A stretch of 37,167 bases of DNA, taken from Vicinamibacteria bacterium. GTDB taxonomy: Bacteria > Acidobacteriota > Vicinamibacteria > Fen-336. Of this stretch, positions 6,222 through 33,607 are shown piece after piece. The stretch lies in contig JAICEW010000018.1 in assembly GCA_025923995.1 (NCBI GenBank), positions 1 to 37,167 on the forward strand, in the 5' to 3' direction. A program made the position numbers and the translations under genes. The notes under the pieces were generated by a model. It saw nothing but the letters and a program-made list of their open reading frames with translations. It searched no databases and was not told where the DNA came from. Within the stretch, counting starts at the first letter, position 1. Every line of letters begins with the position of its first letter.

Positions 6222-6294
6222 GAGTTGGCACGGGATTCGAACCCGCGACAGCCGAGTCCACTGCTCGGTGCTCTACCCCCTGAGCTAGCCAATG
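6222..6294 (-). tRNA. tRNA-His(GUG)-like gene, non-canonical and possibly degenerate
   Basis: It has a 73-nt cloverleaf with T-loop GGTTCGAATCC, D-arm GCTC/GAGC, anticodon loop CAGTGGA (anticodon GTG) and discriminator C73, which is His-like. Positions 1:72 and 2:71 are mismatched (C.U and A.C). Position 33 is A rather than U, and there is no G-1. Confidence 0.5.
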
Positions 6295-6593: not shown

Positions 6594-6683
6594 TGGTGGG
6601 CGGCATGGGATTCGAACCCAAGACGCTCCCGATGGGAGGACGGGGTTACAGCCCGTCGGCGGACCATCCGCACCGTACCGCCC
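6594..6683 (-). tRNA. tRNA-Tyr(GUA), long variable arm, CCA encoded
   Basis: The acceptor is GGGCGGT/GCCGCCC and the D-stem GGTG/CGCC. The anticodon stem ACGGG/CCCGT carries loop CTGTAAC (anticodon GTA). A variable-arm hairpin CTCCC-ATC-GGGAG and T-loop TTCGAAT follow, then A73 and CCA. Confidence 0.85.
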
Positions 6684-6757
6684 TGTTGCGCCACGAAATG
6701 ACCTCGTGATCTCGAGGCAGTCCTCTCCTGACGAATCGGGACGACGGTCCCGAAGCC

Positions 6758-6795
6758 AAAAAAAAGGCCTTCCAGGGGATCGCCCTGGAAGGCCT
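6758..6795 (-). terminator. Rho-independent terminator on the minus strand
   Basis: A 13-bp perfect stem AGGCCTTCCAGGG / CCCTGGAAGGCCT with a 5-nt loop is followed on the minus strand by an 8-U run (plus-strand A8 at 6758-6765). Confidence 0.75.
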
Positions 6796-6993
6796 CGCAC
6801 TTCATGAATGCCGAGCCTTTAGGGTGAGTTGCCCCCCTCGGAGCCAAGGGTGCTGCCGGGATAACCCTCTGTCCAAAGCGACGAGAAGGATCCGCGCACG
6901 CACACCTCGACCCGGTCGATGCGGGTCAGGGACGCTGGCCTCGCCATCGAAGAGTGCGCCGAATTGAGGAGCCGCGAGATCAATTCAAACCTC
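6796..6993 (-). ncRNA. Candidate small transcript (sRNA or small-protein mRNA) running from a sigma70-like promoter to the terminator at 6758-6795
   Basis: A promoter-like TTGACA-17nt-TACATT lies at 7029..7001 on the minus strand, and the strong terminator ends at 6758, giving a ~230-nt transcript. It contains one 42-44 aa ORF (6819..6947 minus: MARPASLTRIDRVEVCVRGSFSSLWTEGYPGSTLGSEGGNSP) with no Shine-Dalgarno sequence. Confidence 0.3.
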
Positions 6994-7000
6994 GGCGCAC

Positions 7001-7029
7001 AATGTATGGACCCGCCGGCGAATTGTCAA
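7001..7029 (-). promoter_or_regulatory. Sigma70-like promoter on the minus strand (-35 TTGACA, 17-nt spacer, -10 TACATT)
   Basis: The hexamers were read off the reverse complement of 7001-7029. This AT-rich island sits in an otherwise ~70% GC region. Confidence 0.35.
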
Positions 7030-7080
7030 TGGTGATGTGTCGCCCGGGGTCAGCGTGGCCCCGCGTCCGGACGCGGCGGT

Positions 7081-7094
7081 ATGACAGGCGTCAT
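7081..7094. promoter_or_regulatory. Fnr/Dnr-type box ATGACAGGCGTCAT (ATGAC-N4-GTCAT), centred 63.5 bp upstream of the ATG at 7151
   Basis: Both palindromic half-sites are perfect. Four more copies of the same motif lie in other promoter regions of this window. Confidence 0.55.
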
Positions 7095-7150
7095 AGGGCG
7101 CTGGCCGAGGGCATGACCACAATGGTCGCGCGACGATCAGGAGGAGTTCC

Positions 7151-7768
7151 ATGAGACCGTACCGCCCCCTTCTCGGAGCGCTCGCCGCTGCCGCGCTCGC
7201 GTTCTTCGCGGCGCCGTCCGCGGCCCGCGCCCACTGCGACACCATGGACGGCCCGGTGGTCGAGGAAGCGCTGGCCGCGCTGGCCTCCGGCGACGTGGTG
7301 CCGGTGCTGAAGTGGGTTCCGCCCGAGAGCGAGTCGCTGGTGCGAGACGTCTTCCGGCACACGCTCGCGGTCCGTGCCCTGGGACCGGAGGCGAAGGAGC
7401 TCGCCGACCGCTACTTCTTCGAGACACTCGTCCGAGTCCATCGCCAGGGCGAAGGAGAGCCGTACACCGGCCTCAGGCGCGCCGGGTCCCCGGTCGCTCC
7501 GGTCGTCGTGGCCGCCGACCGGGCCCTCGACGCGGGCTCGGCCGACGAGCTGGCGCGGATCCTGGGCGACACGATGGACCGGGGCCTGAAGGAGCGGTTC
7601 GCCCGCGCGGTCGAGGCCAGGAAGCACGCTTCCGAGAGCATCGAGAAGGGCCGGGCGTACGTGGCGGCCTACGTCGAGTTCGTCCACCACGCGCAGCGGC
7701 TACAGGACGCCGCCGGAGCCACGCCCGCGGTGCACGATGAGCACCCCTCGAGCGCGCACGCGCACTAG
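7151..7768 (+). CDS. Secreted conserved hypothetical protein (HCDTMDGPVV N-terminal motif, C-terminal His-rich tail); candidate periplasmic metal-binding protein
   Basis: AGGAGG lies 6 nt upstream of the ATG. The signal peptide MRPYRPLLGALAAAALAFFAAPSAARA ends with the A-x-A rule, which predicts a mature N-terminus of HCDT... The C-terminal tail is ...VHDEHPSSAHAH. Confidence 0.8.
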   Translation: MRPYRPLLGALAAAALAFFAAPSAARAHCDTMDGPVVEEALAALASGDVVPVLKWVPPESESLVRDVFRHTLAVRALGPEAKELADRYFFETLVRVHRQGEGEPYTGLRRAGSPVAPVVVAADRALDAGSADELARILGDTMDRGLKERFARAVEARKHASESIEKGRAYVAAYVEFVHHAQRLQDAAGATPAVHDEHPSSAHAH

Positions 7769-13060: not shown

Positions 13061-13900
13061 ATGAGACATTCCGCCCTCTTGGCGCTCGTTCTGGCCCTCG
13101 CAGGCAGGTCCGCGCAGGCGGCCGAGCTCGAGCTGACCGGCTTCGTCGGGCTGACGCTGCCCTTCTACGAACAGACGTTCCCGATCGACCTGCGCCCGCC
13201 CGCGCAGCCCATCCAGGGCATCCAGATCCTGCAGGTCGAGCCGCTGCGCCTCAACGCGAAGGGGAGCTACACCTTCGCGGGCGCGGCCACGATCTACTTC
13301 GGCGCGCTCGGCATCGAAGGCCGCTACGACTCGGCCGACGCGGACCTGACCGCCGATCCGCCGGTATACTCGATCCGGCTTTCGAGCCCGTTCCCGAGCT
13401 TCACCACGAACCTCCAGCCCGCCCCGACGGTCGTGTCCCTCGCCGCCCTCACGCCGCTCTCGCTGAACCTGAAGATCCGCACCTCGGGTGCCGTCCGGTT
13501 CTTCGTCTCGGGCGGCATCAGCTACCTGCCCGACTTCCAGCTCGCGGTGCGCCAGCCGCTGAACCTGCGCTTCGCCGGAGTCGGCCTCCCGCCCGGATTC
13601 GACCTGGGCACGCTCACGGCGGAAGCGATCTCGCGGCCGGACGATCCCGAGGAGGGCAGCCGGCTCGGGGGCAACGGAGGGCTCGGCCTGCAGGTCGGGC
13701 TGGGCGAGCACCTGGCGCTCGTGGGCGACGCGCGGGCCTTCTACTTCCCGAAGCAGGTGCTCGAGTGGCGCGTCACCCAGACGGGCGGCGCCGTCGCGCT
13801 GCCGCCCGCGCTCGTCCAGTCGATCGAGCAGCAGCTGGAGCCGGTGCGGTTCAACCCCGCGTACTTCCACCTGCAGGGCGGGCTGGCGCTGTCTTTCTAG
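13061..13900 (+). CDS. Small outer-membrane beta-barrel protein (OmpW/OmpA-barrel-like), signal peptide
   Basis: The signal peptide is MRHSALLALVLALAGRSAQA. Alternating hydrophobic beta-strands end in ...GGLALSF. The stop codon overlaps the convergent regulator gene's stop. Confidence 0.65.
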   Translation: MRHSALLALVLALAGRSAQAAELELTGFVGLTLPFYEQTFPIDLRPPAQPIQGIQILQVEPLRLNAKGSYTFAGAATIYFGALGIEGRYDSADADLTADPPVYSIRLSSPFPSFTTNLQPAPTVVSLAALTPLSLNLKIRTSGAVRFFVSGGISYLPDFQLAVRQPLNLRFAGVGLPPGFDLGTLTAEAISRPDDPEEGSRLGGNGGLGLQVGLGEHLALVGDARAFYFPKQVLEWRVTQTGGAVALPPALVQSIEQQLEPVRFNPAYFHLQGGLALSF

Positions 13901-14583
13901 GCGCGGGTCAGCTCCTCGAGGGCCGCGCGGTCGGCGAGGACGAACCCGTCCTTCTCGGTCTCGAGGATGCCTTCCTTGCCCCAGCGGCTCATCAGGCGGA
14001 TGCAGGTCTCGATGGTCGTGCCGGTGAGGTCGGCCAGCTCCTGCCGGGTGAGGACCATCGGGATGAAGACCGCTCCCTCGCGTGCTCGACCCACCCGGTC
14101 CGCGAGCTTCAGGAACAGGTGCGCGAAGCGGGTCTCCACGCGCGCGCCCGCGACCTCCGGGATCCGCTGCGCCAGCTCGACGATGCGCCTCGTGAACGCG
14201 GACAGCAGGCCGCGCACGAGGGACGGGTGCTTCTCGAGCAGCGCGAAGAGCGGGCCGCGGCGGACGAGGAGGCAGGTCGTGCGGTCGAGCGCGATCGCGC
14301 TCGCCGGGAAGGGCCGGCCCTCGTAGGCCACGACCGCGCCCACGGGATCGCCCGGCCCGAAGATCTCGAGGATCACTTCCTTTCCGGACGGCTGCAGCTT
14401 CACCACCTTGACGCGGCCGGTGAGGACGGTGAGCAGGAAGTCGGAGGGGTCGCCTTCATTGAAGATGACCTCCCCCTTGTCCCACGACTTCACCAGCGCG
14501 ACTTCCGCCAGGCGCCGGCGGTCGTCGTCGGAAAGGCCGCGGTAGAGGGACGCGGTCCGGAGCGCCTCGCCGACGGGGTTCAA
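13897..14583 (-). CDS. Crp/Fnr-family transcriptional regulator (cNMP-binding domain plus C-terminal HTH; no N-terminal Cys cluster, so Dnr/NnrR/Nss-like rather than Fnr proper)
   Basis: The cNMP-binding fold and HTH (ELADLTGTTIETCIRLMSRWGKEGIL, with E..R in the recognition helix) are present. TTG start lies 18 bp downstream of the FGE-like gene stop, so it is probably co-transcribed with the nos operon. Confidence 0.8.
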   Translation of the reverse strand: MNPVGEALRTASLYRGLSDDDRRRLAEVALVKSWDKGEVIFNEGDPSDFLLTVLTGRVKVVKLQPSGKEVILEIFGPGDPVGAVVAYEGRPFPASAIALDRTTCLLVRRGPLFALLEKHPSLVRGLLSAFTRRIVELAQRIPEVAGARVETRFAHLFLKLADRVGRAREGAVFIPMVLTRQELADLTGTTIETCIRLMSRWGKEGILETEKDGFVLADRAALEELTRA

Positions 14584-16323: not shown

Positions 16324-17154
16324 CTAGAGATCGGCCCGGCGCAGCCGCCGCAGGGCCAGCCACGCCGGTGCCGCGAGCCAGAAGAGCAGGGACAGGCCGA
16401 TCACGACTCCCGCCCCGCGGGGACCGCCCGTGAAGCGGAACAGGGCGAGCGAGGCCGCGCCGAAGGCGCCGGTGCCCTCGATCCCGAGCAGCGCTCCCGT
16501 CCGCACGGCGGCCAGCGGGTTCACGACGGCCGCGACCATCAGCACACGCGACGCCGTGCCCGAGGGCAGCAGCGACGCCGCGCCCAGCGCGAGCAGGTCG
16601 AGGAACACGACCGCCACGAACCAGACCACGAGCGCCAGCGCCAGCGCGCGCGTCCGCTTGCGTCCCACGGAGCTGGCCGAGAGGAGCGCGGCCAGGCCCA
16701 GGAAGATCGCGGTCGTGACGAGCGAAGCCAGCACGAGCAGGAGGAAGCCGCCCAGCCCCTCCGCTCCCGACTGCGCGTAGACGACCATCCCGGCCGCGCC
16801 GAAGCCGACGGCCTGGGCGGCGCCCAGCGCCTGGAGCAGGCCCAGAAGCTTGCCGAACAGGATCGTGCCGCGGGAGACCGGTTGCGAGAACGTGAGCTCG
16901 GCCGCGCCGCGCTCGGGTGCCAGGGAGAGCACCCCGATCACGAGCGCCGTGAGCGGCACGATGAGGAGCACGAGCTGGACGAGCGACACGGCCGTGCGCG
17001 CGAAGTCCTGCACGCCGTGGCCGCCCGAGAGGACGTACCCGGCTCCGGCGACCGCAAAGGCGAGGACGCCAAAGACGGCGGCGAAGATCTGGGTCCAGCG
17101 GGACCGGAGCGCCAGCACCAGCTCCTCGCGGGCGAACAGGGCGAGGTGGCTCAT
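16324..17154 (-). CDS. nosY: NosY, ABC-2 type permease of the NosDFY system
   Basis: It is a 276-aa polytopic membrane protein. Its ATG overlaps the nosL stop (ATGA), and it lies downstream of nosF and nosL. Confidence 0.8.
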   Translation of the reverse strand: MSHLALFAREELVLALRSRWTQIFAAVFGVLAFAVAGAGYVLSGGHGVQDFARTAVSLVQLVLLIVPLTALVIGVLSLAPERGAAELTFSQPVSRGTILFGKLLGLLQALGAAQAVGFGAAGMVVYAQSGAEGLGGFLLLVLASLVTTAIFLGLAALLSASSVGRKRTRALALALVVWFVAVVFLDLLALGAASLLPSGTASRVLMVAAVVNPLAAVRTGALLGIEGTGAFGAASLALFRFTGGPRGAGVVIGLSLLFWLAAPAWLALRRLRRADL

Positions 17155-17585
17155 CGTTCGCTCCCACCCGGGAACACCTCGGACCGCGCGACCGGTGTCC
17201 CTGCTCGCGCCGCCGGGTCCTGGTCCCTGGACGCCGCGTCCGCGTGCGCGATCAGGTGCGATCCCATCGGCGTGGCCAGTTCGGGCACGCGCGTATAGGT
17301 CGCGTCCTGGCCACGCACCCACGCACGCGTCCGATGGTCCGCGACGAACACGGCCGCGTGCTGCGGCGCTCGTCCCGCCTTCAGGTAGCCGGCCAGACAG
17401 CCCAGGTCGTCGAAGAACCGGGGCACCTCGCCCGGGGCCACGATCTGCGCGGCGAAGCGTGCTTCCGACACCGCCATGCGGCAGGCGGCGCAAGCCTCCT
17501 GGCGCGTGTCGAGCGGTGCCGGCTCGAGCGCCCCGCCCGCGCAGCCGGCCAGCACGATCAGGAGCGCCAGGGTCGCCCCTCTCAT
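17151..17585 (-). CDS. nosL: NosL, copper-chaperone lipoprotein for N2O reductase
   Basis: The lipobox LLIVLAGC is followed by the NosL-like motif EACAACRM...AAQIV...RFFDDLGC. AGGAG lies 7 nt upstream of the ATG. The ATG overlaps the nosF stop, and the nosL stop overlaps the nosY ATG. Confidence 0.75.
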   Translation of the reverse strand: MRGATLALLIVLAGCAGGALEPAPLDTRQEACAACRMAVSEARFAAQIVAPGEVPRFFDDLGCLAGYLKAGRAPQHAAVFVADHRTRAWVRGQDATYTRVPELATPMGSHLIAHADAASRDQDPAARAGTPVARSEVFPGGSER

Positions 17586-18496
17586 GCGTGCGCTCCTGGC
17601 GGCGCGTCCGCGACCAGCTCGCGGTACAGCGCGTCGAGCCGTCCGTCCTCCGCCGTCAGCCCGCGCACCTCGACGCCCAGCGCGCGCACGGCCTCGAGAA
17701 CGCGCGGGCGGATCCCGGCCGGGCCGGGCACGACCAGCTCCTCGCCGGCCCAGGTGGCGGCCGGCGCGACCGCCCTCACCGCGACGAGCAGGCCCGCGGG
17801 GTTCGCGGCCAGTCGGAGGCGCATGACTCCGCGCTCGGACAGGCGGTCCTTCAGCTCCGTCGCGGTCAGGCGGGCCGCCAGCCGCCCGCCCACCAGCACC
17901 GCGAACCGATCGGCGAGCCGCTCGACGTCGCCCAGGTGGTGCGAGGTGAAGAGGACGGCACGGCCGTCGTGGCGCGCCCGTTCCACGATGCCGTAGAACG
18001 CGCACAGGCCGTCCGGGTCGAGGGCCGCCGTGGGCTCGTCGAGCAGGAAGACGGGCGCCTCCGCCAGCAGCGCGACCGCGAGGCCCAGGCGCTGGACCAT
18101 GCCTCCCGAGTAGGTGCCGACGGCGCGACCGCCGGCGCCGTTGAGGGAGGCGAAGCGGAGCACCTTCGTCACGCGGTCGGCCGGCGCACCGCGGAGCTTG
18201 CGGTAGAACTCGACCACCTCCGCTCCCGTGAGCGCCTCGGGGAAAGAGACCTTCTGGGGCAGGAACGAGAGCACCTCGCGCGCGGCCGCGTCCGCGGCGG
18301 GGCGGGGCGGGTCGCCGAGCAGGACGTCGCCCGAGGTCGGCCGGATGAGACCGGCGGCGGCCTTGAGCGTCGTCGTCTTGCCCGAGCCGTTGGGCCCGAG
18401 CAGTGCCACGACCTCGCCGCGCGCCACCTCCATCGAGAGGCCGTCGACGGCCAGCTGGCCGCCGAAGCGCTTCGTGAACGCGCGGTAGCGGATCAT
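17582..18496 (-). CDS. nosF: NosF, ABC transporter ATP-binding protein
   Basis: It has Walker A GPNGSGKTT, the signature YSGGMVQR and Walker B LLDEPT. The ATG overlaps the nosD stop by 4 nt. Confidence 0.85.
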   Translation of the reverse strand: MIRYRAFTKRFGGQLAVDGLSMEVARGEVVALLGPNGSGKTTTLKAAAGLIRPTSGDVLLGDPPRPAADAAAREVLSFLPQKVSFPEALTGAEVVEFYRKLRGAPADRVTKVLRFASLNGAGGRAVGTYSGGMVQRLGLAVALLAEAPVFLLDEPTAALDPDGLCAFYGIVERARHDGRAVLFTSHHLGDVERLADRFAVLVGGRLAARLTATELKDRLSERGVMRLRLAANPAGLLVAVRAVAPAATWAGEELVVPGPAGIRPRVLEAVRALGVEVRGLTAEDGRLDALYRELVADAPPGAHA

Positions 18497-19872
18497 CGCG
18501 CCCCGACTCGCATCGTCAGCGCGCCGAGGAGGGTCAGCGCGGCGGAGGCCACGAGGCCGATCGGGCTCGCGCGTCCCTCCCGCGGGCGGCTCGTCGGTAC
18601 GCGCGCCATCAGCGGCGGGCGGGCCAGCGGCTCGGGATCCTCGACCGGCACCGCGCGCAGGACGGGGAACGCGCGCTCGGCGGCGCCGATCGCGGCGGCC
18701 GCGAAGCTGTCGGCGAGCAGGTCGGCCGCGGTGAGGTTGCCGCGGAAGTGGTCGAAGACGCTCGTCAGCACGTACGGGCGGTCGCTGCGGCCGTCGCCGT
18801 CCAGGTCGGGCTCGTCGTTGCCGGACCAGTAGTTGCCGCGGAAGACGGTGTCCGTCCGGCGCGCGACCAGCTCGAGAGGGGACCGGTTGCCGACGAAGAC
18901 GTTGCCCTCGAAGCGATGGCCGCCCGCCGGGTCGTACAGGATGACCGCCACGTCCGACCCCGCGACCGCGTTGCCCTTGAGCGTGATGCGATGCGACCCC
19001 TCGATGAAGACACCGCGGGCGTTGTCGGCCACGAGGTTGTCCTCGGCCAGCACGTCGTCGCAGGTCTGGAAGAGCAGGCCGACCGACGCGAAGCCGCGGT
19101 TGCGCACGAAGCGGTTGCGCCGGAACACGATGCGCTTCGAGTACATGATGGCGGTGCCGGCCGCGCCGTTCTCGAACGTGTTGTCCTCGAACACGTTGTC
19201 GTCCGAGAACATGTAGTGCAGGCCGTAGCGCACGTCGCGCGCGGTGTTCCGCCGCAGCACGCCCCTGGAGGCGTTCTGGAGGTACAGGCCGTCGCGGACG
19301 TCCACGATCTCGTTGTCCTCGAACCGGAAGCCCTCGAGGTTGTAGGCGTGGATGCCGGATCCCTTCTCGCCGGCTTCCCTCCCGGGGATCCCGCGGATGC
19401 GGCACCGTTCGACCACCGCGCCGCTCGCCTCGCGCAGGTAGACGCCGAAGATGGCCTCCCGGATGTCGAGGTCGCGCAGCGTCGTGTCGCGCGCGGACGT
19501 GTGCACGCCGGCCGAGTCGAGCGAGAGGTCGCCCCCGCGGCGGCCGTCGATCGCGAACCCCTCGACGGTCACGCCATCGGTGCGGATGCGCACGACGCTG
19601 CCGCGTCCCGACCCCAGCAGGAGGGGCCGGCCGCGGCCGACGAGGCGCAGCGGCTTGTCGATGACGAGGTCGCCCGCGTACTCGCCTGCGGGGACCTCGA
19701 CCGTCGCGCCAGTCCCGGCGGCATCGACGAGCGGCTGGAGCGCGGAGACGTCGGCCGCGGCAGGCCTTCCTTCCTGCGCGGCCGGCGCGACCGCGGCCAT
19801 CTGGTCGGCCCTCGCGGACGCCGCGAGCAGGCACAGGGCGGCGGCGAGCGCCGCGCGCGGGACGTGGGTCAC
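18493..19872 (-). CDS. nosD: NosD, periplasmic right-handed parallel beta-helix copper-binding protein
   Basis: The signal peptide is followed by repeated NosD/parallel-beta-helix repeats (GIHAYNLEGFRFEDNEI..., GLYLQNASRGVLRRN...). GTG start lies 1 nt after the nosB-like gene stop. Confidence 0.9.
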   Translation of the reverse strand: MTHVPRAALAAALCLLAASARADQMAAVAPAAQEGRPAAADVSALQPLVDAAGTGATVEVPAGEYAGDLVIDKPLRLVGRGRPLLLGSGRGSVVRIRTDGVTVEGFAIDGRRGGDLSLDSAGVHTSARDTTLRDLDIREAIFGVYLREASGAVVERCRIRGIPGREAGEKGSGIHAYNLEGFRFEDNEIVDVRDGLYLQNASRGVLRRNTARDVRYGLHYMFSDDNVFEDNTFENGAAGTAIMYSKRIVFRRNRFVRNRGFASVGLLFQTCDDVLAEDNLVADNARGVFIEGSHRITLKGNAVAGSDVAVILYDPAGGHRFEGNVFVGNRSPLELVARRTDTVFRGNYWSGNDEPDLDGDGRSDRPYVLTSVFDHFRGNLTAADLLADSFAAAAIGAAERAFPVLRAVPVEDPEPLARPPLMARVPTSRPREGRASPIGLVASAALTLLGALTMRVGAR

Positions 19873-20633: not shown

Positions 20634-22490
20634 TCAACGGACGATCAGGTAGCCCTGCATCTCCTGATGCAGCGCCGAGCAGAAGTTCGTGCAGTAGTAG
20701 GGGAAGACGCCCTTCTTCTTCGCCTTGAAGGTGACGGTCTTCGTCTCGCCCGGGTCCACGACGATGTTGATGTTGTAGTCGAGCAGCCCGAAGCCGTGCA
20801 GCTCGTCGGTGGTCTGCTCGATGTTGGTGATGGCGACCGTGACGTCGTCGCCTTCCTTGATCTCGAAGTCCGTGGGCGTGATGGTCGACCGCACCGTGAT
20901 CATCTTCACCAGCACCTTGCTGCCGGTGCGGGTGACGCCGGCGTCCTTCACGTCCCAGATGGCGTGGGGGTGCTTGTTCTCCTCCTTGGGGTACACCTCG
21001 ATGGGCTTGATCTTGTCCGCCTTGATGATCTGCGCGTAGTGCGGCTCGGGCTCGGTGAAGAAATCGAGCAGGAGCTTCATCTTCTCCTCGCTGATGTCCA
21101 CGAGCTGGGACGCCTCGGGCTGCGAGGGGCCGACCGACAGGTGCCGGCCGTGCGACAGCTTGTTGAGGCCGACCAGGTACTTCCCGTCGGGGCTCACGGT
21201 GTCGCCCTCGGCCGCGGTCAGGTGGCCGATGGAGTAGGACATCGGCACCTTGTCCACCACCTCCCAGCTCCCCAGCTTCCACTTGGCGATCGCGCTGTCC
21301 ACGAACAGCGAGGTGTAGGCGAAGCCGTCCGGACCGAACTGGGTGTGAAGCGGGCCGAGGCCGACCGGCACCTCGGCGTCCTTGATGGACTCGTACTTGA
21401 GGACGGGGATGCCGTCCTCGTCGCCGGAGAAGTCCTTGTTGCGCATCGCGGTCTGGACCTTCTCCCAGTTGAACGCGGTGGTGACGCCCTGCAGCTTGCC
21501 CGACCCGATGATGTACTTGCCGTCGGGCGCGACGTCGACGCCGTGCGGCGACTTGCCGCAGGGCATGAAGTACACGAGGCCGGGGTGCTTGGCGGGGTCG
21601 ATCACCTTCACGCCGCCGATCGCCTGCCCTTCGCCCTTCGCCGCCAGCTGCTCGGCCATCCTCCAGTCGACGGCGGCGATGTAGTCGCGGTCCTTCTGGG
21701 CGGAGGTGACCTCCAGCTTCCCGGTGGCGCGCTCGGTGTTGTACGAGGTGAAGAAGACCCAGCCGTCCGACACCTTCTTGCCGGCGTCGCCCAGGTCGTA
21801 GTCGAAGGGCGGCATCAGGATCTGCCACCCGATCGACATCGCGCCCGTGTTGGGGTCGATCTTGATCCCCGTCACGACGCCCTTGTAGTCGCTCGCGTAC
21901 TTCGCGACCTCGACCGCGGTGCCCTTGGGGATGGGGATCGAGAAGCGCGAGGCCATCACCGAGTACTCGGTGTTGGGCGTGACGAAGGCCGAGCCGTGGT
22001 TCCCCGACACGTTCGGCACGGGGCCGATGATCTGCTTCGTCTTGAAGTCGCGCAGGTCCACGCGGGCGACGCGGCCGTTCATCTCGTTCACGAACATCCA
22101 GCGGCCGTCGTAGTCCCCGTTCGTCTCCGACAGCGCGGGGTGGTGCACGTCGCCCCAGGTGAGGTCGCCCAGCATCGCCTTCGACTCGTCGTCGAAGCCG
22201 TAGCCGGTGGCCGGGTAGGGCGTGAAGACGGGGATGGTCGAGATGTGCCGGCCCGAGGGCAGGCCGTACACGTACATCTGGCCGGAGTGGCCGCCGGACG
22301 CGAACAGGTAGTACTCGTCGAGGTCGCCGGGGGCCACGTAGACCTTCATGGCCGCGTTGGCCACGTCGGACACGACGGCGCCCTTCTTGGAGCCCTTGGG
22401 AGCGCTGGGGGCGCAACGCGCCTGCAGGAGCCCGGCCGCGGCGATCCCGGCCAGCGTCGCGAGGACGGTGCCGGCACGTCTCGTCTTCAT
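20634..22490 (-). CDS. nosZ: Nitrous-oxide reductase NosZ, clade II (Sec-dependent) type
   Basis: It has the C-terminal CuA motif CTNFCSALHQEMQGY and the seven-bladed propeller CuZ-domain His pattern. The Sec-type signal (MKTRRAGTVLATLAGIAAAGLLQA) is not Tat. GAAGGAGG lies 5 nt upstream of the ATG at 22490. Confidence 0.95.
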   Translation of the reverse strand: MKTRRAGTVLATLAGIAAAGLLQARCAPSAPKGSKKGAVVSDVANAAMKVYVAPGDLDEYYLFASGGHSGQMYVYGLPSGRHISTIPVFTPYPATGYGFDDESKAMLGDLTWGDVHHPALSETNGDYDGRWMFVNEMNGRVARVDLRDFKTKQIIGPVPNVSGNHGSAFVTPNTEYSVMASRFSIPIPKGTAVEVAKYASDYKGVVTGIKIDPNTGAMSIGWQILMPPFDYDLGDAGKKVSDGWVFFTSYNTERATGKLEVTSAQKDRDYIAAVDWRMAEQLAAKGEGQAIGGVKVIDPAKHPGLVYFMPCGKSPHGVDVAPDGKYIIGSGKLQGVTTAFNWEKVQTAMRNKDFSGDEDGIPVLKYESIKDAEVPVGLGPLHTQFGPDGFAYTSLFVDSAIAKWKLGSWEVVDKVPMSYSIGHLTAAEGDTVSPDGKYLVGLNKLSHGRHLSVGPSQPEASQLVDISEEKMKLLLDFFTEPEPHYAQIIKADKIKPIEVYPKEENKHPHAIWDVKDAGVTRTGSKVLVKMITVRSTITPTDFEIKEGDDVTVAITNIEQTTDELHGFGLLDYNINIVVDPGETKTVTFKAKKKGVFPYYCTNFCSALHQEMQGYLIVR

Positions 22491-22512
22491 GATTGCCTCC
22501 TTCAAGGCGTCG

Positions 22513-25648: not shown

Positions 25649-27582
25649 GCGGTCTCCTGGGAAGGCGCGGCCGGCGCCGGGCGCTCCTGGATCTGGAAGC
25701 GCTCCATGGTCATCGCGTCGGTGGGGCAGCGGACGGCGCAGAGGCCGCACCGGATGCAGCGGTCGTCGTCCTTGATCATCGCGGACAGCGGCAGGCCGTG
25801 CGCCTGCGCGCGCTCCGTGAGCTCGGCGCGCTCCGCCTCCGGCAGGTCGAGCGACTCGAAGGGAACGATGGCCAGGCAGTACTCGGGGCACACGTCCACG
25901 CAGCGGCTGCAGAGCACGCACTTCTCGGGGTCGTAGATGGTCTGCACGTGGCAGACCAGGCAGCGCGCAGCCTGCCGGATGGCGGCGGCCGGGTCGTAGC
26001 CGGTCTCGACCTCCGCGATCCCGGTGCGCCGGCCGAGGTCGAGCGTGGGCGGCGTCTCGCGGTCGAGGATCTCGAAGCCCGCGAGCATCCGGTAGTCGCG
26101 GGTCGGGATCTTCTCGACGTCCAGCGTGACCTCGATCGCGCTCCGGTCCCCGGCCAGCAGCTCGTGGATGGAGCGCGCGGCGAGCTTGCCGTTCGCGACC
26201 GCCTCGATGAGGTTCCGGGGGCCGAACGCGGCGTCGCCGCCGGCGAAGACACCCGCGGCGGAGGTGGCCAGCGTCCGGGGATCGACGCGGATCGTCCCCG
26301 CGGGCGTCGTGTCGACGCCGTCCTGCGGCGTGAGGAAGTCGAGGTCGGCCTTCTGCCCGATGGCCAGCACGCACGCGTCGGCGTCCAGCGCGATCACGTC
26401 CTCGTCGTCGTAGGCGGGGCTGAAGCGGCCGTTCTCGTCGAACACGGACCGCACCGCGCGCAGCTCGACCTGGCGCAGCCGGCCGTCGCCCAGGAAGCGC
26501 CGGGGGCCGCGGCGGGGCAGGAACGCGACTCCTTCCCGCCGTGCCTCCTCGTACTCGTCGTGCCCCTGCGTCGACTGCAGCACGGGCATCTCGGCGAAGC
26601 TCTCCAGGGAGACGATCGTCACCTCGGTGGCCCCGCCGCGCAGGGCCGCGCGCGCCGAGTCGAACGCCTCCTTCATCCGGGCGTCGCTCTCTCCGGCGAG
26701 CTCCTCCGCTTCCTCCTCGCGGCCCAGGCGCAGCGCGGTGCGCGCCGCGTCGAAGGCCACGAAGCCGCCGCCGATGACCACCACGCGGCGCCCGAGGTTC
26801 ATCCGGTAGCCGCGGTTGACGTTCAGGAGGTAGTCGACCGCCTTCACCACGCCGTCCAGCTCGACGCCGGGCACCTGCAGGTCGCGGCCGCGCGAGACGC
26901 CGACGGAGAGGAAGACGGAGCGGAAGCCCTGCGCGCGCAGCTGCGCGAGGCCGAAACCGGGCGTGAGCGCGACGCCCGAGCGCAGCGTGACGCCCAGCGC
27001 GAGGATCTTCTGGATCTCCTCGTGGATGAGCGTCCGCGGGAGCCGGTACTCGGGGATGCCGAAGCGCATCATCCCCCCCGGCTCCGACGCCGCGTCGAAG
27101 ACCGTGACGTCGTAGCCGAGCAGGGCGAGGTCGTGGGCCGCGGACAGGCCCGCCGGCCCCGCGCCCACCACCGCGACCTTGGCCCGCTCGGCGGGGGCCG
27201 GCCCGCCGAAGGGGACGACGGGAAGGTGGCCGCGGTAGACGTTGCCTTCGAGCAGCGGCGCCTGGCGGAGGCGGTCCTGCGTGTCGGGCCGGCGCGACTC
27301 GACGCCGTACTGCTCGGTGACGTAGCGCTTCAGCGCGCGGATGGAGATGGGGGCGTCGATGTTCCCGCGCCGGCAGGCGTCCTCGCAGGGTGCGGCGCAG
27401 ACGCGCCCGCAGACCGAGGCGAACGGGTTGGGCGCGCGCGCGACGAGGTAGGCCTCCTCGTTCCGTCCCTCGGCGATCAGCTGGACGTAGCGGCCGGCGT
27501 CGGTGCGGACGGGACAGCCCGACTGGCACTTGACCTGCGCCTTCCAGTGCTCGAGATCGGGAAGCTGTACGCGCACGGGCAT
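25645..27582 (-). CDS. GltD-like FAD/NAD(P)-binding oxidoreductase with N-terminal Cys-cluster and C-terminal 2x[4Fe-4S] ferredoxin domain; first gene of the nos operon
   Basis: It has two Rossmann motifs (VAVVGAGPAGLSAA; RRVVVIGGGFVAFDAA). The N-terminus carries a GltD-type Cys cluster, and the C-terminus has CLVCH, CVLCSRCVDVCP and CIRCGLCAVRCP. No signal peptide is present. ATG at 27582 is preceded by GAGAGGTG; a GTG at 27591 is an alternative start. Confidence 0.75.
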   Translation of the reverse strand: MPVRVQLPDLEHWKAQVKCQSGCPVRTDAGRYVQLIAEGRNEEAYLVARAPNPFASVCGRVCAAPCEDACRRGNIDAPISIRALKRYVTEQYGVESRRPDTQDRLRQAPLLEGNVYRGHLPVVPFGGPAPAERAKVAVVGAGPAGLSAAHDLALLGYDVTVFDAASEPGGMMRFGIPEYRLPRTLIHEEIQKILALGVTLRSGVALTPGFGLAQLRAQGFRSVFLSVGVSRGRDLQVPGVELDGVVKAVDYLLNVNRGYRMNLGRRVVVIGGGFVAFDAARTALRLGREEEAEELAGESDARMKEAFDSARAALRGGATEVTIVSLESFAEMPVLQSTQGHDEYEEARREGVAFLPRRGPRRFLGDGRLRQVELRAVRSVFDENGRFSPAYDDEDVIALDADACVLAIGQKADLDFLTPQDGVDTTPAGTIRVDPRTLATSAAGVFAGGDAAFGPRNLIEAVANGKLAARSIHELLAGDRSAIEVTLDVEKIPTRDYRMLAGFEILDRETPPTLDLGRRTGIAEVETGYDPAAAIRQAARCLVCHVQTIYDPEKCVLCSRCVDVCPEYCLAIVPFESLDLPEAERAELTERAQAHGLPLSAMIKDDDRCIRCGLCAVRCPTDAMTMERFQIQERPAPAAPSQETA

Positions 27583-27633
27583 GCGGGGCACCTCTCGCCG
27601 GGAAGAGTGTCCGGCTCGCCCGCAGGCAACGGT

Positions 27634-27647
27634 ATGACCGTCGTCAT
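27634..27647. promoter_or_regulatory. Fnr/Dnr-type box ATGACCGTCGTCAT, ~58 bp upstream of the nos-operon first gene (minus strand)
   Basis: It has perfect ATGAC/GTCAT half-sites with an N4 spacer. Confidence 0.55.
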
Positions 27648-27698
27648 GGGGATTCGTGAGCCATCGGGCTCATTCGCGGGTGCACGTTCGGGCCCATC

Positions 27699-27712
27699 CT
27701 GACGGCCGTCAT
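27699..27712. promoter_or_regulatory. Fnr/Dnr-type box cTGACGGCCGTCAt, centred 55.5 bp upstream of the hemerythrin gene start (27761)
   Basis: The 12-bp perfect palindrome is TGACGGCCGTCA. Together with the box at 27634..27647 it forms a divergent promoter pair. Confidence 0.55.
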
Positions 27713-27760
27713 ACCCGCGCGCGCCGCATCGGCGCATAACGGGTCGGAAGGAGGCCGGAC

Positions 27761-28366
27761 GTGCAGATAGCGATCGAAGTCCTGATGAACGAGCACCGCC
27801 TGATCGAGCAGGCGCTGGGGTCCCTCGAGACGTACGCCGTCGAGGTCCGGGCCGGGCTGGCGCCGGCCCGGCAGATCGTCGGCGAGTACGCCTCGTTCTT
27901 CCGCGGCTTCGCGGACGGCTGCCACCACGGCAAGGAGGAGGACGTGCTGTTCCAGCGCCTGCTGGAGCGGGGCTTCCCGCGCCAGTCGGGGCCGCTGGCG
28001 GTGATGTACCACGAGCACGAGCTCGGACGCGCTCACGTCGGCGCCCTGTCCGGGATCGCAGAGCGGCCGGGCTCGGTCCAGACGCCGGAGGTCGAGGCGC
28101 TGCTCGCCAGTGCCGACGCCTTCGTGCCCCTCCTCCGCCAGCACATCCTCAAGGAGGACCGCATCCTCTACCCGATGGCGCTCGACGTGCTGAGCGGTCC
28201 GGAGCTCGACGCGATGAACACGCAGTTCGAGGAGTTCGAGGCGACGATGCGCGTGGACGGCACCTACGACGCCCTGCAGGCGCTGGCGGAGCGCCTGATC
28301 GTCCGTTTCCGCCCGGACCCGGTCCGCATGGCCGCGGTCTCGCAGATGGCCCACTGCGGCCGATGA
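27761..28366 (+). CDS. Hemerythrin-like (HHE cation-binding) domain protein
   Basis: GGAAGGAGG lies 6 nt upstream of the GTG. It has repeated H..HH / HE / H...KED metal-ligand spacing (NEHRLIE, GCHHGKEED, YHEHELGRAH, QHILKEDR). Confidence 0.8.
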   Translation: MQIAIEVLMNEHRLIEQALGSLETYAVEVRAGLAPARQIVGEYASFFRGFADGCHHGKEEDVLFQRLLERGFPRQSGPLAVMYHEHELGRAHVGALSGIAERPGSVQTPEVEALLASADAFVPLLRQHILKEDRILYPMALDVLSGPELDAMNTQFEEFEATMRVDGTYDALQALAERLIVRFRPDPVRMAAVSQMAHCGR

Positions 28367-29427: not shown

Positions 29428-30464
29428 GCGCACAGCGGGTCCTCGGCGAACGCGTCGCCGGTCGCCGCGAAGGCGCGGGAACGGGATCCACCGCAGACCG
29501 CGCGCAGCTCGCAGCGGCCGCAGCGGCCGCCCAGCGCGTCGGGGTCGCGCAGGCGCCTGAAGACCGGGTCGTCGCGGTAGGTCTGGACCAGCCGTCCCTC
29601 GCGCGCGTTGCCGCGCGCCATGGGAAGGAACCCGCTCGGGCAGACGTTCCCGACGTGGTCCACGAAGGCGAACCCGTTGCCGTCGTTGACCGCGCGGGGC
29701 GCGCGCAGCTGCCGGCGGCCGAGGCTGGTCGTGGTGGCGCCCGCGCGCTCGCTGGCCATCTGGATCCGGCGATAGTGGGGCGCCTCGGTCGTCTTGATCC
29801 CGAAGGGGACCCGGCGCGAGAGGTCGTCCAGGAAGCGCAGCACGTCCTCGCACTCGTGGGGCGTGATCTGCTCGAGGCTCGCGCCTCGGCCCGTCTGCAC
29901 CAGGAAGAACGCGGCCCACAGCGTGAGCGGGAACGTCGCCACCCGCTCCGCCAGCTCGGGCAGGTGCGGGAGCGTCAGGCGGCTCACGGTCGAGTTGACC
30001 TGGAGCGGCAGCCCGAGACCGATCACCGCATCGATGATCTTCATCGTGTTCGCGTACGAGCCCTTCACGCGCCGGAACGCGTCGTGGCTCTCGGGGTCCG
30101 GGCCGTCGAGGCTCACCGCGACGCGCGAGAGGCCGGCCGCCTTCAGCTCCTCGAGCCGGGCGCGCGTCGCCATCGCGGTGCCGCTGGGGGTGAGCGCGAC
30201 CGTGAGCCCGATCCGCGTCGCATGGCCCACCAGCTCCGCCAGGTCCTTGCGCCACATCGGGTCGCCGCCGGTGAGGACGAGCAGGGGAGGCGGCGTCCCG
30301 AACGCGCGGATCTGATCGAGCAGGTGGAAGCCTTCCTCCGTGCCGAGCTCGCGCGGGTCCCGGCGGGCGATGGCGTCGGCGCGGCAGTGCACGCAGCTGA
30401 GCGCGCAGGCGCGCGTCACCTCCCAGATGACCAGGAAGGGCGTCCGGTCGAAGTCGACGACCAT
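29385..30464 (-). CDS. Radical SAM protein with partial SPASM/twitch C-terminal Cys motif (NirJ/AhbD/PqqE-like subfamily)
   Basis: It has the CxxxCxxC cluster in IWEVTRACALSCVHCRA and C-terminal CGRCELRAVCGG plus further Cys. There is no Shine-Dalgarno sequence. The Fnr-type box is centred exactly 41.5 bp upstream of the ATG. Confidence 0.8.
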   Translation of the reverse strand: MVVDFDRTPFLVIWEVTRACALSCVHCRADAIARRDPRELGTEEGFHLLDQIRAFGTPPPLLVLTGGDPMWRKDLAELVGHATRIGLTVALTPSGTAMATRARLEELKAAGLSRVAVSLDGPDPESHDAFRRVKGSYANTMKIIDAVIGLGLPLQVNSTVSRLTLPHLPELAERVATFPLTLWAAFFLVQTGRGASLEQITPHECEDVLRFLDDLSRRVPFGIKTTEAPHYRRIQMASERAGATTTSLGRRQLRAPRAVNDGNGFAFVDHVGNVCPSGFLPMARGNAREGRLVQTYRDDPVFRRLRDPDALGGRCGRCELRAVCGGSRSRAFAATGDAFAEDPLCAYDPPDGSPPRRWS

Positions 30465-30498
30465 GGCCGATGGTCGGACGATCCGCGCTCCCGGCCCA

Positions 30499-30512
30499 TG
30501 ACGGCCGTCATA
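30499..30512. promoter_or_regulatory. Fnr/Dnr-type box ATGACGGCCGTCAT between the divergent radical-SAM and methyltransferase genes
   Basis: It is a perfect 14-bp palindrome. Its centre is 41.5 bp from the rSAM ATG and 40.5 bp from the methyltransferase ATG at 30546. Confidence 0.6.
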
Positions 30513-30545
30513 CGCACGGGAGGCGGGGCGGCGCGATGATGGAGC

Positions 30546-31229
30546 ATGGACCCACTGGCCGGCTCGTCCTGGAGCGCGCCCGCGACGGTGGCCGGCTTCG
30601 CTCGCTCGTCGCCGAACGAGGTGCTGATGCGCTTCGCCCAGGATCACCTGGGCCGCATCGGCGGCGGGCGGCTGCTGGATCTCGGGTGCGGCGCCGGCCG
30701 CAACGCCGTGCCGCTCGCGCGCGAGGGCTGGGAGGTCCTGGGAACGGATCTGTCGTGGCCCATGCTGCGCGCCGCAAAGCGCCGCGTCGAGGACGAGGGC
30801 CTCGGGCGCCGCCTCCGGCTCGCCCTGGCGCCCATGGACCTCGTGCCGGCCGCGGACCGCGGCTTCGACGTCGTGGTCGCTCACGGGATCTGGAACCTCG
30901 CGCGTTCTTCCGCGGAGTTCCGGCGCGCCGTGGCGGAGGCGGCTCGCGTGGCGCGCAGAGGGGCCCGCCTCTTCGTGTTCACGTTCTCCCGCCACACGCT
31001 TCCGCCCGAGGCGGAGCCCGTCGCCGGCGAGCCGTTCGTCTTCACGGACTTCTCGGGCGAGCCCCAGTGCTTCCTCAGCGCGGAGCAGCTCGCGGCGGAG
31101 CTCGGCCAGGCCGGCTTCGTCCCGGACCCGGAGGTTCCGCTGACCGAGTACAACCGCCCCGCGCCGGGTCTCACGCGCGTGGGCGGGCCGCCGGTCATCT
31201 ACGAAGCGCTGTTCCGCCGCTCCGACTGA
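30546..31229 (+). CDS. Class I SAM-dependent methyltransferase
   Basis: Motif I is LLDLGCGAGRNAVPLA, and an acidic motif II and post-I region are present. The start is uncertain: ATG 30546 has a weak RBS, while ATG 30627 (MRFAQ...) has GAGG 5 nt upstream. Confidence 0.7.
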   Translation: MDPLAGSSWSAPATVAGFARSSPNEVLMRFAQDHLGRIGGGRLLDLGCGAGRNAVPLAREGWEVLGTDLSWPMLRAAKRRVEDEGLGRRLRLALAPMDLVPAADRGFDVVVAHGIWNLARSSAEFRRAVAEAARVARRGARLFVFTFSRHTLPPEAEPVAGEPFVFTDFSGEPQCFLSAEQLAAELGQAGFVPDPEVPLTEYNRPAPGLTRVGGPPVIYEALFRRSD

Positions 31230-31236
31230 CGGGCCC

Positions 31237-31581
31237 TCAGCCCTTCGGCTCCCGGAGCATCACGAGCAGCATCCGGGTGGCCTCGGACGCGTCGAGGGCG
31301 TGAGGCACGCCGCCGGGCATGCGGACGATGGTCCCCGGCGTCGCGCGGACGCTCTCGCCGCCGATCGTGAGCGCCAGCGATCCCTCCAGGACGAGCACGA
31401 GGGCATCGAAGGGCGAGGTGTGCTCCTCGAGCCCCTGGCCGGCGTCGAAGGCGAAGAGCGTGACGTTGCCGCCCGCCGTCCTCGCGAGCACGCGGCTCGC
31501 GATCCCGCGTTCGGTCGGGGTGACGAGCGTGGCCAGCGCGAGCGCCTGGGCGGAGGGAATCGACGGAGCGTCCTTGGACAT
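31237..31581 (-). CDS. Cupin-domain protein
   Basis: It has a 114-aa small beta-barrel with cupin motifs (G.LEEHTSPFDALVLVLEG...G..VRMPGGVPHAL). The Fnr-type box is centred 41.5 bp upstream of the ATG. Confidence 0.7.
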   Translation of the reverse strand: MSKDAPSIPSAQALALATLVTPTERGIASRVLARTAGGNVTLFAFDAGQGLEEHTSPFDALVLVLEGSLALTIGGESVRATPGTIVRMPGGVPHALDASEATRMLLVMLREPKG

Positions 31582-31615
31582 GGCCCGACCCTATCGCGAC
31601 GGCTCGGCGGGCGCC

Positions 31616-31629
31616 ATGACGGCCGTCAT
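31616..31629. promoter_or_regulatory. Fnr/Dnr-type box ATGACGGCCGTCAT upstream of the cupin gene
   Basis: It is a perfect 14-bp palindrome (a 16-bp palindrome if flanks are included: cATGACGGCCGTCATg). Confidence 0.6.
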
Positions 31630-31654
31630 GCGCGGCGCCGCCTGGGCCTGTCGG

Positions 31655-33607
31655 CTACTGCGCCGACCCGCCCGGCGCGAGCGCCATCAGGAAGCCGCCG
31701 CGGGGAGGCACGGTGACCGCGAACCGGCCCACCGGCTCGCGCGAGAGCGCGTGGCGCGCGAAGCCCTCGCCGTCCGCATCGTCGCTCACCATCAGCCCGC
31801 TGACCGTCGAGCCCACGAAGCCGAGATCGAGGGCCATCGGACGCGGCAGCCCGGTGCCGTTGATGCCCGCCACGAACCAGGTCTCGCCGCTACGCCGGGC
31901 CAGCACGACGTCTCGTCCCGGATAGCCGTCGAGGAACCGCACGTCGTCCCAGGCCGGCGGGATGGCCTTCAGCATCTCCACCACGAACTCCGGAGCCTCG
32001 GACAGGTCCCTGGGCGTGAGGCCCATGTGCTGGACTCCGGACTCGAACAGCACGGCCAGGGCGAGCTCGAAGGCCTCGGTGGTGCGACGGTCGAAGCGGC
32101 GCATCTTGCGGTTGAACACGGTGGGCGTGAAGTCCATCGGCCCGATGGCGTTGCGCGTGAAGGGCAGGATGGCGGAGTGCTCCGGCTGCTCGTCCGCGTT
32201 GCGCTGCTCGAAGCCGGCATGCTCCATGCCCTTCACGGCCTCCATGGTCATGAGGTGGGGAAACGTGCGCTCCCAGCCGCGCGGGATGGTGGCGCCGTGG
32301 AAGTTCACCATGATGCCGTGGTCCGCGGCGTCCTTCAGTATGTCGAGGTACAGCGCCATGGTCGCCTGCTTGTCGCCGCCCATGAAGTCGACCTTGATGC
32401 CGCGCACGCCCACCTGGCGCAGGCGCGCCATCTCCTCGCGCCGGACGGACGGCTCGTGCATCCTGTCCTTCGGCGTCATCGGCGCGTCGTTGAAGCTTCC
32501 GTTGGAGTTGTACCAGAGCCAGATCCCGACGCCCTTTTCGCGTCCGAGGCGTACCAGCTCGCGGATGCCGTCCCAGCCGATCTGCGCGTCCCACCGGGCG
32601 TCGACGAGCAGGTATTCCCAACCCAGGCGGGCCGCCATCTCCAGGAACTCCTTCTGCACGGGCAGGGTGCAGCTCGCGTCGTCGAGCTGCAGCCAGCTCC
32701 AGGAGGCCACCCCGGGGGCCACGAACGAAGCGTCCTGCACGGCGGAAGGCCGCGCGAGGTCGGTGACGAGCGTGGTCTCGACGATGGGCCCAAGCGTGGA
32801 GCCGAGGACGATCACGCGCCACGGGGAGACGAAGGGCAGTCGGACGGTGGGCGCCACGGGATCGACCTCGCCGCGGTGCTCGGCGGGCTGCGGGAAGCCA
32901 ACGCGGTACAGCCCGCCCGCGGCGTGCTGCCGCAAGCGGGCCGCGAGGTAGCCTTCGTCCAGGTCGCTCTCGGTGAGGAGCACCCAGCCGGTGGGCGTCT
33001 TGAAGAGGGCGGGGAAGGCCCAGCCCGCCGCGTGGGGGGACGACGTGCCCGCCGGCACGCCGATGGCGTACCGGTCCTCGTAGCACGGGTTCACGCGGCT
33101 CCAGCCTGTCTTGGCGTCGTGCATGGGGTGCATCCAGGCGAGCGTTCCCTCCGGCAGCGCGAAGCCCGTCTCCTCGCTCTCGACGACCTCGTGGCCGTCG
33201 TCGACCGCCTGGCGCACGACGTAGCGGAACGCGACGCCGTCGTTGGAGACGTGGAAGACGACCTCGAGCGCCGCTCCGCGCGCGCCCGCGAACGTCACCG
33301 CGCGCCGGTTGGCCTCGGACCGGACTCGGCGCCGTTTTCCGTGCGCGAGCGTGTAGTCCTCGCGGAAGCGCTCGACCGGTCCTGCCCCTCGCAGGGTCAG
33401 CCCGGAAGCCAGGTCGGCCCTCCGCATCCGCAGGCCCAAGGGCGAAGAGGCCAGGGCGGAGCGTCCTTCCAGCAGGATGTCGTAGCTCGGGATCCCGCGC
33501 TCGACGCCCACGCGGACCCGGATGCGCCCGTCCGGGCTCGCGATCTCGTGTCCGGGGGCGGCGGTCGCGCTGGCCGCGAGAGCGAGCGTCGCCACGATTG
33601 CCTTCAT
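31655..33607 (-). CDS. Secreted glycoside hydrolase, GH97-like (alpha-glucosidase/alpha-galactosidase family)
   Basis: It has a signal peptide. A central (beta/alpha)8 region carries GIKVDFMGGD and FHGATIPRGWERTFP, both GH97-like. The ATG lies 10 nt after the GH51 gene stop. Confidence 0.6.
   Translation of the reverse strand: MKAIVATLALAASATAAPGHEIASPDGRIRVRVGVERGIPSYDILLEGRSALASSPLGLRMRRADLASGLTLRGAGPVERFREDYTLAHGKRRRVRSEANRRAVTFAGARGAALEVVFHVSNDGVAFRYVVRQAVDDGHEVVESEETGFALPEGTLAWMHPMHDAKTGWSRVNPCYEDRYAIGVPAGTSSPHAAGWAFPALFKTPTGWVLLTESDLDEGYLAARLRQHAAGGLYRVGFPQPAEHRGEVDPVAPTVRLPFVSPWRVIVLGSTLGPIVETTLVTDLARPSAVQDASFVAPGVASWSWLQLDDASCTLPVQKEFLEMAARLGWEYLLVDARWDAQIGWDGIRELVRLGREKGVGIWLWYNSNGSFNDAPMTPKDRMHEPSVRREEMARLRQVGVRGIKVDFMGGDKQATMALYLDILKDAADHGIMVNFHGATIPRGWERTFPHLMTMEAVKGMEHAGFEQRNADEQPEHSAILPFTRNAIGPMDFTPTVFNRKMRRFDRRTTEAFELALAVLFESGVQHMGLTPRDLSEAPEFVVEMLKAIPPAWDDVRFLDGYPGRDVVLARRSGETWFVAGINGTGLPRPMALDLGFVGSTVSGLMVSDDADGEGFARHALSREPVGRFAVTVPPRGGFLMALAPGGSAQ

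Follow-up and report, generated by a model that had tools for sequence, protein, structure and literature searches.

At the phage lambda promoter PRM, CI at OR2 (about −42) activates an mRNA that begins with the A of AUG. Sites at a comparable position, termed class II, serve FNR in Escherichia coli: in 19 out of 23 promoters activated by FNR the site lies at −41.5 ± 4, with −40.5 and −42.5 among the positions (PMC3688515). For bacterial leaderless genes, TANNNT approximately 12 bp upstream of the start codon is an accepted computational signature, and Zheng et al. predicted such genes to make up 9.7%–19.4% of genes in three out of three Acidobacteria genomes (PMC3160421). Here we analyze a stretch of 37,167 nucleotides from a Vicinamibacteria bacterium (assembly GCA_025923995.1, contig JAICEW010000018.1, positions 1–37,167; hereafter the window), in which two copies of a palindrome of the Crp/Fnr type stand upstream of genes for a radical S-adenosylmethionine (SAM) protein, a SAM-dependent methyltransferase, and a cupin. 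An earlier note on this sequence had read the palindromes as Fnr boxes centered exactly 41.5 bp upstream of the radical SAM and cupin ATG codons and had suggested leaderless, class II activated transcripts.

We propose that both palindromes are binding sites of a Crp/Fnr-superfamily activator, for which the regulator encoded at 13897–14583 is the likeliest candidate. The boxes would occupy the class II position (approximately −41.5) in promoters with a −10 but without a −35 element, and the start codons of the three genes would coincide with the predicted transcription start. With the start codons so placed, the mRNAs would be leaderless or carry a leader of at most 1–2 nt, their translation would proceed without a Shine-Dalgarno (SD) sequence, and one of the boxes would serve two divergent promoters. 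Judged on sequence comparison, this is the best-supported explanation of the locus, and we regard it as probably correct.

Boxes and start codons of the three genes

The sequence ATGACGGCCGTCAT, a perfect 14-bp palindrome (ATGAC-GGCC-GTCAT), occurs twice, at 30498–30511 (center 30504.5) and at 31616–31629 (center 31622.5), and has the 5-N4-5 layout and TGA…TCA core of class II Crp/Fnr sites. Written as 16-mers, to which no strand is assigned, box 1 (CATGACGGCCGTCATA, 30497–30512) is common to the divergent radical SAM and methyltransferase genes, and box 2 (CATGACGGCCGTCATG, 31615–31630) lies upstream of the cupin gene. The radical SAM/SPASM gene (TIGR04053; 29385–30464, minus strand) has the A of its start codon at 30464, 40.5 bp from the center of box 1; the methyltransferase gene (30546–31229, plus strand) begins at 30546, 41.5 bp from the same center; and the Cupin_2 gene (114 amino acids; 31237–31581, minus strand) begins at 31581, 41.5 bp from the center of box 2. 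The earlier note had the second center and the cupin distance right; it placed the first center at 30505.5, 1 bp too high, and so gave the radical SAM gene 41.5 bp and the methyltransferase gene 40.5 bp, the reverse of the true values. The two divergent ATG codons are separated by a spacer of 81 bp, which holds one box and two −10 hexamers.

The core TGAC-N4-GTCA is enriched in the window, whose G+C content is 71%: five copies (at 7082, 27635, 27700, 30499, and 31617) are found against 0.52 expected, and none of 100 shuffled sequences reaches five. Read by eye from the sequence, all five are intergenic and upstream of genes.

Each of the three genes has a −10-like hexamer between box and start codon. 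For the cupin gene this is TAGGGT (31588–31593, minus strand), which is of the TAnnnT type, occupies nucleotides 22–27 after the box, and ends 6 nt before the ATG, that is, at −12 to −7 relative to it. The hexamers of the other two genes end 5 nt before the ATG (−11 to −6) and share with TANNNT only A at the second and T at the sixth position: GACCAT for the radical SAM gene (30470–30475, minus strand; nucleotides 22–27 after the box) and GATGAT for the methyltransferase gene (30535–30540, plus strand; nucleotides 23–28), the same GATGAT being present in one related locus (L005).

The start codons themselves are well constrained. A TGA at 30537–30539 lies in frame upstream of the methyltransferase ATG, and a TAG inside the TAGGGT hexamer lies in frame three codons upstream of the cupin ATG, so that the ATG codons at 30546 and 31581 are the first possible starts of the two genes. 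The NCBIfam model TIGR04053 aligns with the radical SAM protein from residue 3, and homologs of this protein start 2–10 residues ahead of an invariant DFxxxPFLVIWE block. Among 120 cupin homologs, 89 have a length of 115 amino acids and the same Met start, with an MxxDxxxxP beginning. Directly after Met1 of the methyltransferase stands DPLAGSxWSAPxTVAGF, which is kept in nearly all of 120 homologs; because this motif precedes Met28, we rejected a start at Met28 (ATG at 30627, preceded by GAGGTG, −9.5 kcal/mol). A start at the ATG within the box was likewise rejected: in the window this ATG is not in the reading frame of the radical SAM gene, stop codons block it for the methyltransferase and cupin genes, and the 16 intervening codons are not conserved.

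We measured SD strength as the best pairing to the anti-SD sequence over the 15 nt upstream of the start codon. The values are −3.1 kcal/mol for the radical SAM gene, −5.3 for the methyltransferase gene (with a GGAG just 1 nt ahead of the ATG), and −6.2 for the cupin gene, compared with −9.4 to −15.2 kcal/mol for the SD-led genes of the window (nosZ, −11.7; hemerythrin, −11.7; DUF6448, −10.3). The claim that the radical SAM and cupin genes have no SD sequence is therefore borne out, and a usable SD sequence is lacking at the methyltransferase gene as well.

A recurring annotation error comes to light at these starts. Many public homologs carry a spurious 16-codon N-terminal extension (MTAVI, MTAVM, or MTIVM), gene callers having started them at the ATG within the regulator box ATGACnnnnGTCAT. 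These comprise radical SAM homologs (P0007, P0008, P0012, P0017, P0023, P0036, P0040, P0042, P0046, P0059, P0065, P0066, and P0104), two cupin homologs (P0181 and P0207), and methyltransferase homologs (P0277, P0305, P0341, P0346, and P0348). In approximately 20 of the public homologs that begin in this way the conserved N terminus is reached at codon 17, which is 48 nt from the ATG of the box and 41.5 nt from its center.

Promoter geometry in related loci

To place these promoters in context, we examined 80 genome loci collected through radical SAM homologs, 61 metagenome loci collected through cupin homologs, and three further contigs. The closest relatives of the box-linked proteins belong to metagenome-assembled genomes (MAGs) of Vicinamibacterales (Acidobacteriota). 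Together with the window, the Vicinamibacterales and Methylomirabilota loci yielded 64 distinct boxes, or 128 oriented flanks, with the 16-mer TATGAC-N4-GTCATA as consensus. An nAnnnT hexamer begins at nucleotide 22 after the 16-mer in 46 out of 128 flanks and at nucleotide 23 in a further 22, while other offsets occur about three times each; 26 of the former and nine of the latter are TAnnnT proper. In 68 of the 128 flanks the hexamer start is thus 29.5–30.5 nt from the box center. If the hexamer is set at −12 to −7, the box center falls at −41.5 or −42.5, the class II position.

No sigma-70 −35/−10 pair, and no terminator, was detected by a promoter and terminator scan of 30300–31800. By our own count the hexamers at −35 to −30 match TTGACA at only two or three out of six positions, so that the −35 element is weak or absent. 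In an Rfam scan of the window a tRNA was the only match, and the three genes had neither a leader nor a riboswitch match nearby. The fixed offset of the hexamer supports class II geometry of the box relative to a conserved −10 element.

For the position of the start codon we used an analysis anchored at the −10 hexamer in place of automated start calling based on G+C at third codon positions, which we judged too crude. Among 69 flanks with a −10 hexamer at the expected offset, 29 have the start codon of a long open reading frame (ORF) 4–8 nt after the hexamer: the gap is 6 nt in 17, 5 nt in six, and 7 nt in four, and the two cases of a 4-nt gap were judged false by eye. In another 28 flanks the start codon is 14–86 nt downstream and has a strong SD sequence before it. 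Gaps of 8–13 nt are absent from the 69 flanks. Mean anti-SD pairing is −2.9 kcal/mol in the leaderless-like class versus −10.7 kcal/mol in the SD-led class, a comparison that is partly circular because this energy served to select the SD-led class. A C precedes the start codon in 23 out of 27 leaderless-like promoters (P = 2 × 10⁻⁷, binomial test) compared with 15 out of 29 SD-led promoters (P = 0.01, Fisher's test). This fits the preference of transcription initiation for a pyrimidine at −1 and a purine at +1.

The same layout recurs among the orthologs. The radical SAM start codon is 40.5 to 43.5 bp from the box center in approximately 18 of the 21 box-bearing loci, so the exact 41.5 bp of the earlier note does not hold across orthologs. 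Within Vicinamibacterales the distance is 40.5 bp in four loci and the window, 41.5 bp in five, 42.5 bp in five, or 43.5 bp; since none of these distances is a multiple of three, the spacing is no effect of coding frame. In loci whose −10 hexamer is displaced by one base away from the box (L011, L014, L015, and L034), the radical SAM ATG shifts along with it. Most metagenomic cupin orthologs have no box, yet keep TAGAGT or TACAGT 6–7 nt before the ATG. A box is present upstream of one cupin ortholog (L144), followed by 21 nt, TACCCT, 6 nt, and ATG, and of one methyltransferase ortholog (L142), followed by 21 nt, TACCAT, 6 nt, and GTG. For all three genes, therefore, the start codon of the orthologs moves with the −10 hexamer and the N termini are conserved; the leaderless-like layout survives both a 1-bp shift between box and −10 hexamer and the loss of the box. 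We observe this architecture, its conservation, and the start codons directly. The earlier suggestion of leaderless class II transcripts gains support from the conserved −10 hexamer at class II spacing and from the start codon 5–6 nt beyond it, recurring in orthologs; it is the insistence on exactly 41.5 bp that has to be dropped.

In two of the related loci (L001 and L012), the radical SAM gene lies within an operon and is SD-led. In a betaproteobacterial MAG (L002, 3920–3990), the same box and −10 hexamer precede a radical SAM ortholog that has a short leader containing AGGAGG. Two window genes without a box also look leaderless: an outer membrane protein beta-barrel gene at 13061 (plus strand) and an OmpA-family gene at 8646 (minus strand) have TAGACT or TACCAT 7 nt before the ATG (TAnnnT-N7-ATG) and no SD sequence.

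Several points weigh against the proposal of leaderless class II transcripts. GACCAT and GATGAT keep only A2 and T6 and leave a gap of 5 nt instead of 6, and initiation could land on the start codon's U or G, with no translatable leaderless mRNA as the result. A site overlapping the −35 region may in principle mediate repression. Three radical SAM orthologs (L006, L016, and L022) have gaps of 9–20 nt with at best a weak SD sequence, so the architecture is not universal. The transcription starts, in this organism and its relatives alike, are predictions, and the regulator is paired with the box solely by their co-occurrence.

The alternative that survives these data best accepts the promoters as described but lets the transcripts begin a few nucleotides before or within the start codon. 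This would give very short leaders or, at the two genes with a 5-nt gap, a start at +2 or +3, and in consequence the use of another start codon or inefficient translation. The 5-nt gaps of the radical SAM and methyltransferase genes, where the mode is 6 nt (17 of 29), would be accommodated in this way, as would the range of 40.5 to 43.5 bp among orthologs. However, a 5-nt gap recurs in four orthologs (L003, L009, L013, and L017), where −1 is C and +1 is A in every case, and no other in-frame start would keep the conserved N termini; we consider such displaced transcription starts unlikely.

Less probable still is that the box is a repressor operator, or that the real promoters are elsewhere, with mRNAs whose conventional leaders include the box. 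Neither version accounts easily for a −10 hexamer locked at 22–23 nt after the box in 68 out of 128 flanks, for the failure to find a −35 element in 30300–31800, or for divergent ATG codons just 81 bp apart. The three genes also lack SD sequences although the genome has strong ones elsewhere, and the cupin orthologs retain TAnAGT-N6–7-ATG without any box. That the spacing of 41.5 bp is coincidental and the palindromes have nothing to do with expression of the three genes might be argued from the small number of cases (three genes in one window, with the earlier note's figures 1 bp off), but is scarcely credible given five cores against 0.52 expected and the same layout of box, −10 hexamer, and start codon, which dozens of orthologous loci share across two phyla and different genera.

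The candidate regulator and the nos cluster

Pfam and NCBIfam scans identify a clade II-type nitrous oxide reductase cluster in the window, including nosZ (20634–22505), nosD (18493–19872), and nosL (17151–18005), all on the minus strand, with genes for cytochrome c, cytochrome b, a Rieske protein, and an Fe-S flavoprotein upstream of them. The last gene of the cluster (13897–14583, minus strand) encodes a Crp/Fnr-family regulator with cNMP_binding and HTH_Crp_2 domains and the recognition helix GTTIETCIRLMSRW, and this protein is our candidate for binding the boxes. That it binds there, activates rather than represses, and responds to a signal that may be oxygen, NO, or N2O are inferences, as are the exact 5′ ends.

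The label "Fnr" used for the box in the earlier note does not fit either partner. Compared with TTGATnnnnATCAA (TTGAT-N4-ATCAA), the box differs at four out of 10 specified positions (1, 5, 10, and 14), for which reason it is better called a Crp/Fnr-superfamily box; it does keep the FNR-type 5-N4-5 geometry and the TGA core. A search with the canonical FNR box TTGATNNNNATCAA, allowing up to two mismatches, returned five unrelated matches, none of them at the sites reported here. The translation of the regulator has no N-terminal Cys cluster of the FNR type (its only Cys residues are at approximately 104 and 195, by our own count), and the protein scores below every NCBIfam equivalog cut-off, reaching 44.8 bits with the Fnr model against a cut-off of 228. 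Among solved structures, its best matches are Corynebacterium GlxR and Mycobacterium tuberculosis Crp (approximately 1e-22), followed by DNR (1e-10), FixK2 (2e-9), and FNR (6e-9). Judged by these comparisons, FNR is a more remote relative of the regulator than actinobacterial GlxR/Crp.

Six Vicinamibacterales loci have an ortholog of the regulator adjacent to the radical SAM gene, and more distant orthologs (35%–40% identity) are found in Methylomirabilota/Rokubacteria loci that use the same box. The recognition helix GTT(I/V)ET.IR is common to the regulators of both groups (the window, L001, L007, L008, L014, L016, L034, and L023–L038). In Bacillota, the regulators beside TIGR04053 genes have GTTRETINR, and some of these loci have TGTGA-type palindromes upstream of the TIGR04053 gene. 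Such covariation of helix and box supports the pairing of regulator and box, short of proof.

The regulator gene of the window has an apparent TTG start at 14583, 17 nt after the stop codon of an FGE-sulfatase-family gene, with no recognizable SD sequence. In two related loci the regulator ortholog has a box of its own, followed by TACAAT-N6-ATG in one (L016) and located 19 nt before the ATG in the other (L014), so that autoregulation is possible.

The three remaining boxes of the window, again without assigned strand, have a −10 hexamer at the same offset but are followed by leaders with strong SD sequences of the AGGAGG type. One (7080–7095) is upstream of the DUF6448 gene (ATG at 7151), with CACAAT as −10 hexamer and AGGAGGAG as SD sequence in the leader. 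Another (27633–27648) is upstream of the Fe-S flavoprotein, Rieske, cytochrome b, cytochrome c, and nosZ genes on the minus strand, with GACACT as −10 hexamer and an SD-led ATG at 27582. The third (CCTGACGGCCGTCATA, 27698–27713) is upstream of the hemerythrin and NapH-like genes and an SD-led GTG at 27761. The box-bearing genes of the window are thus the nos genes from the Fe-S flavoprotein gene on, the hemerythrin and NapH-like pair, DUF6448, the TIGR04053 radical SAM gene, the methyltransferase gene, and the cupin gene. If confirmed, this distribution indicates that leaderless and SD-led genes occur within one regulon.

Ahead of the box at 7080 lie genes for tRNA-His (GTG; 6222–6294) and tRNA-Tyr (GTA; 6594–6683), both on the minus strand, and between these and the box is a stretch of lower G+C content (approximately 6700–7080) without a match to any Rfam family. 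A terminator-like hairpin with an A/T run can be read by eye at approximately 6760–6800.

In one related contig (L142, 1–6738), radical SAM, DUF6448, B12-binding radical SAM, methyltransferase, cupin, and hemerythrin genes are clustered, and the cluster directly adjoins nosL, an ABC-2 membrane-protein gene, and an ABC ATPase gene. The families in this cluster are those linked to boxes in the window, a correspondence suggesting that clade II nos clusters have a conserved accessory set or regulon.

A wider proposal can be built on these observations. A single regulator dimer on one 14-bp palindrome would drive two divergent leaderless mRNAs, the 81-bp spacer being a minimal bidirectional promoter (one box and two −10 hexamers), and the box would define the regulon of an uncharacterized, Cys-less subfamily of Crp/Fnr regulators in control of the clade II nosZ cluster and of a conserved accessory set (TIGR04053 radical SAM, methyltransferase, cupin, hemerythrin, and DUF6448) in Vicinamibacteria and Methylomirabilota. 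We put this forward tentatively, as an idea whose chances fall slightly short of even. Vicinamibacteria are an abundant soil group with little known genetic characterization; confirmation would provide a promoter and regulon model for their nitrous oxide reduction genes, consisting of the TATGAC-N4-GTCATA box, a candidate regulator, and co-regulated accessory genes, and would add an unusually compact bidirectional promoter.

Comparison with described systems

Lambda PRM and its cI gene resemble the proposed arrangement in combining an activator at about −42 with a leaderless mRNA, but differ in the activator family, which is unrelated, in the phage context, and in the promoter, which is unidirectional. 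In the nirI-nirS intergenic region of Paracoccus denitrificans, a single NNR box is described as placed midway between two divergent denitrification promoters, near −41.5 for each; the transcripts there have leaders, and the regulator subfamily and box sequence are different. Our literature search returned no confirmation of this nirI-nirS arrangement, and no usable confirmation of an explicit precedent for a class II Crp/Fnr site joined to a leaderless mRNA. The PA and PD promoters of the haloarchaeal gvp genes are close and divergent, have common, overlapping GvpE activator sequences, and belong to a system for which leaderless transcripts are discussed as well; they depend on archaeal TATA and B recognition element machinery and on an unrelated activator (PMC2241852).

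The class II promoters of E. coli FNR and CRP (narG, dmsA, nirB, nrfA, and others) share with the window a 14-bp 5-N4-5 palindrome with TGA/TCA cores, centered approximately 41.5 bp (40.5–42.5) upstream of the transcription start, which in the window is a predicted one, and overlapping a weak or absent −35 element (PMC3688515). They differ from it in the half-site, which is TTGAT in E. coli and aTGAC in the window, and in their targets, which have SD-containing leaders where the three window genes have none. In contrast to E. coli FNR, the window regulator has no [4Fe-4S] Cys cluster and hence is not an FNR-type oxygen sensor.

The leaderless genes of Actinobacteria, Deinococcus-Thermus, and Acidobacteria resemble the three window genes in having a −10 element 5–7 nt before ATG or GTG and no SD sequence (PMC3160421). 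Compared with them, the window promoters are in addition coupled to an activator box at constant spacing, and two of their three −10 hexamers are degenerate (A2 and T6 only). The activator box and the leaderless −10 promoter are therefore each of a kind already known, and it is their combination, well supported by comparison with related genomes, that would distinguish the promoters described here.

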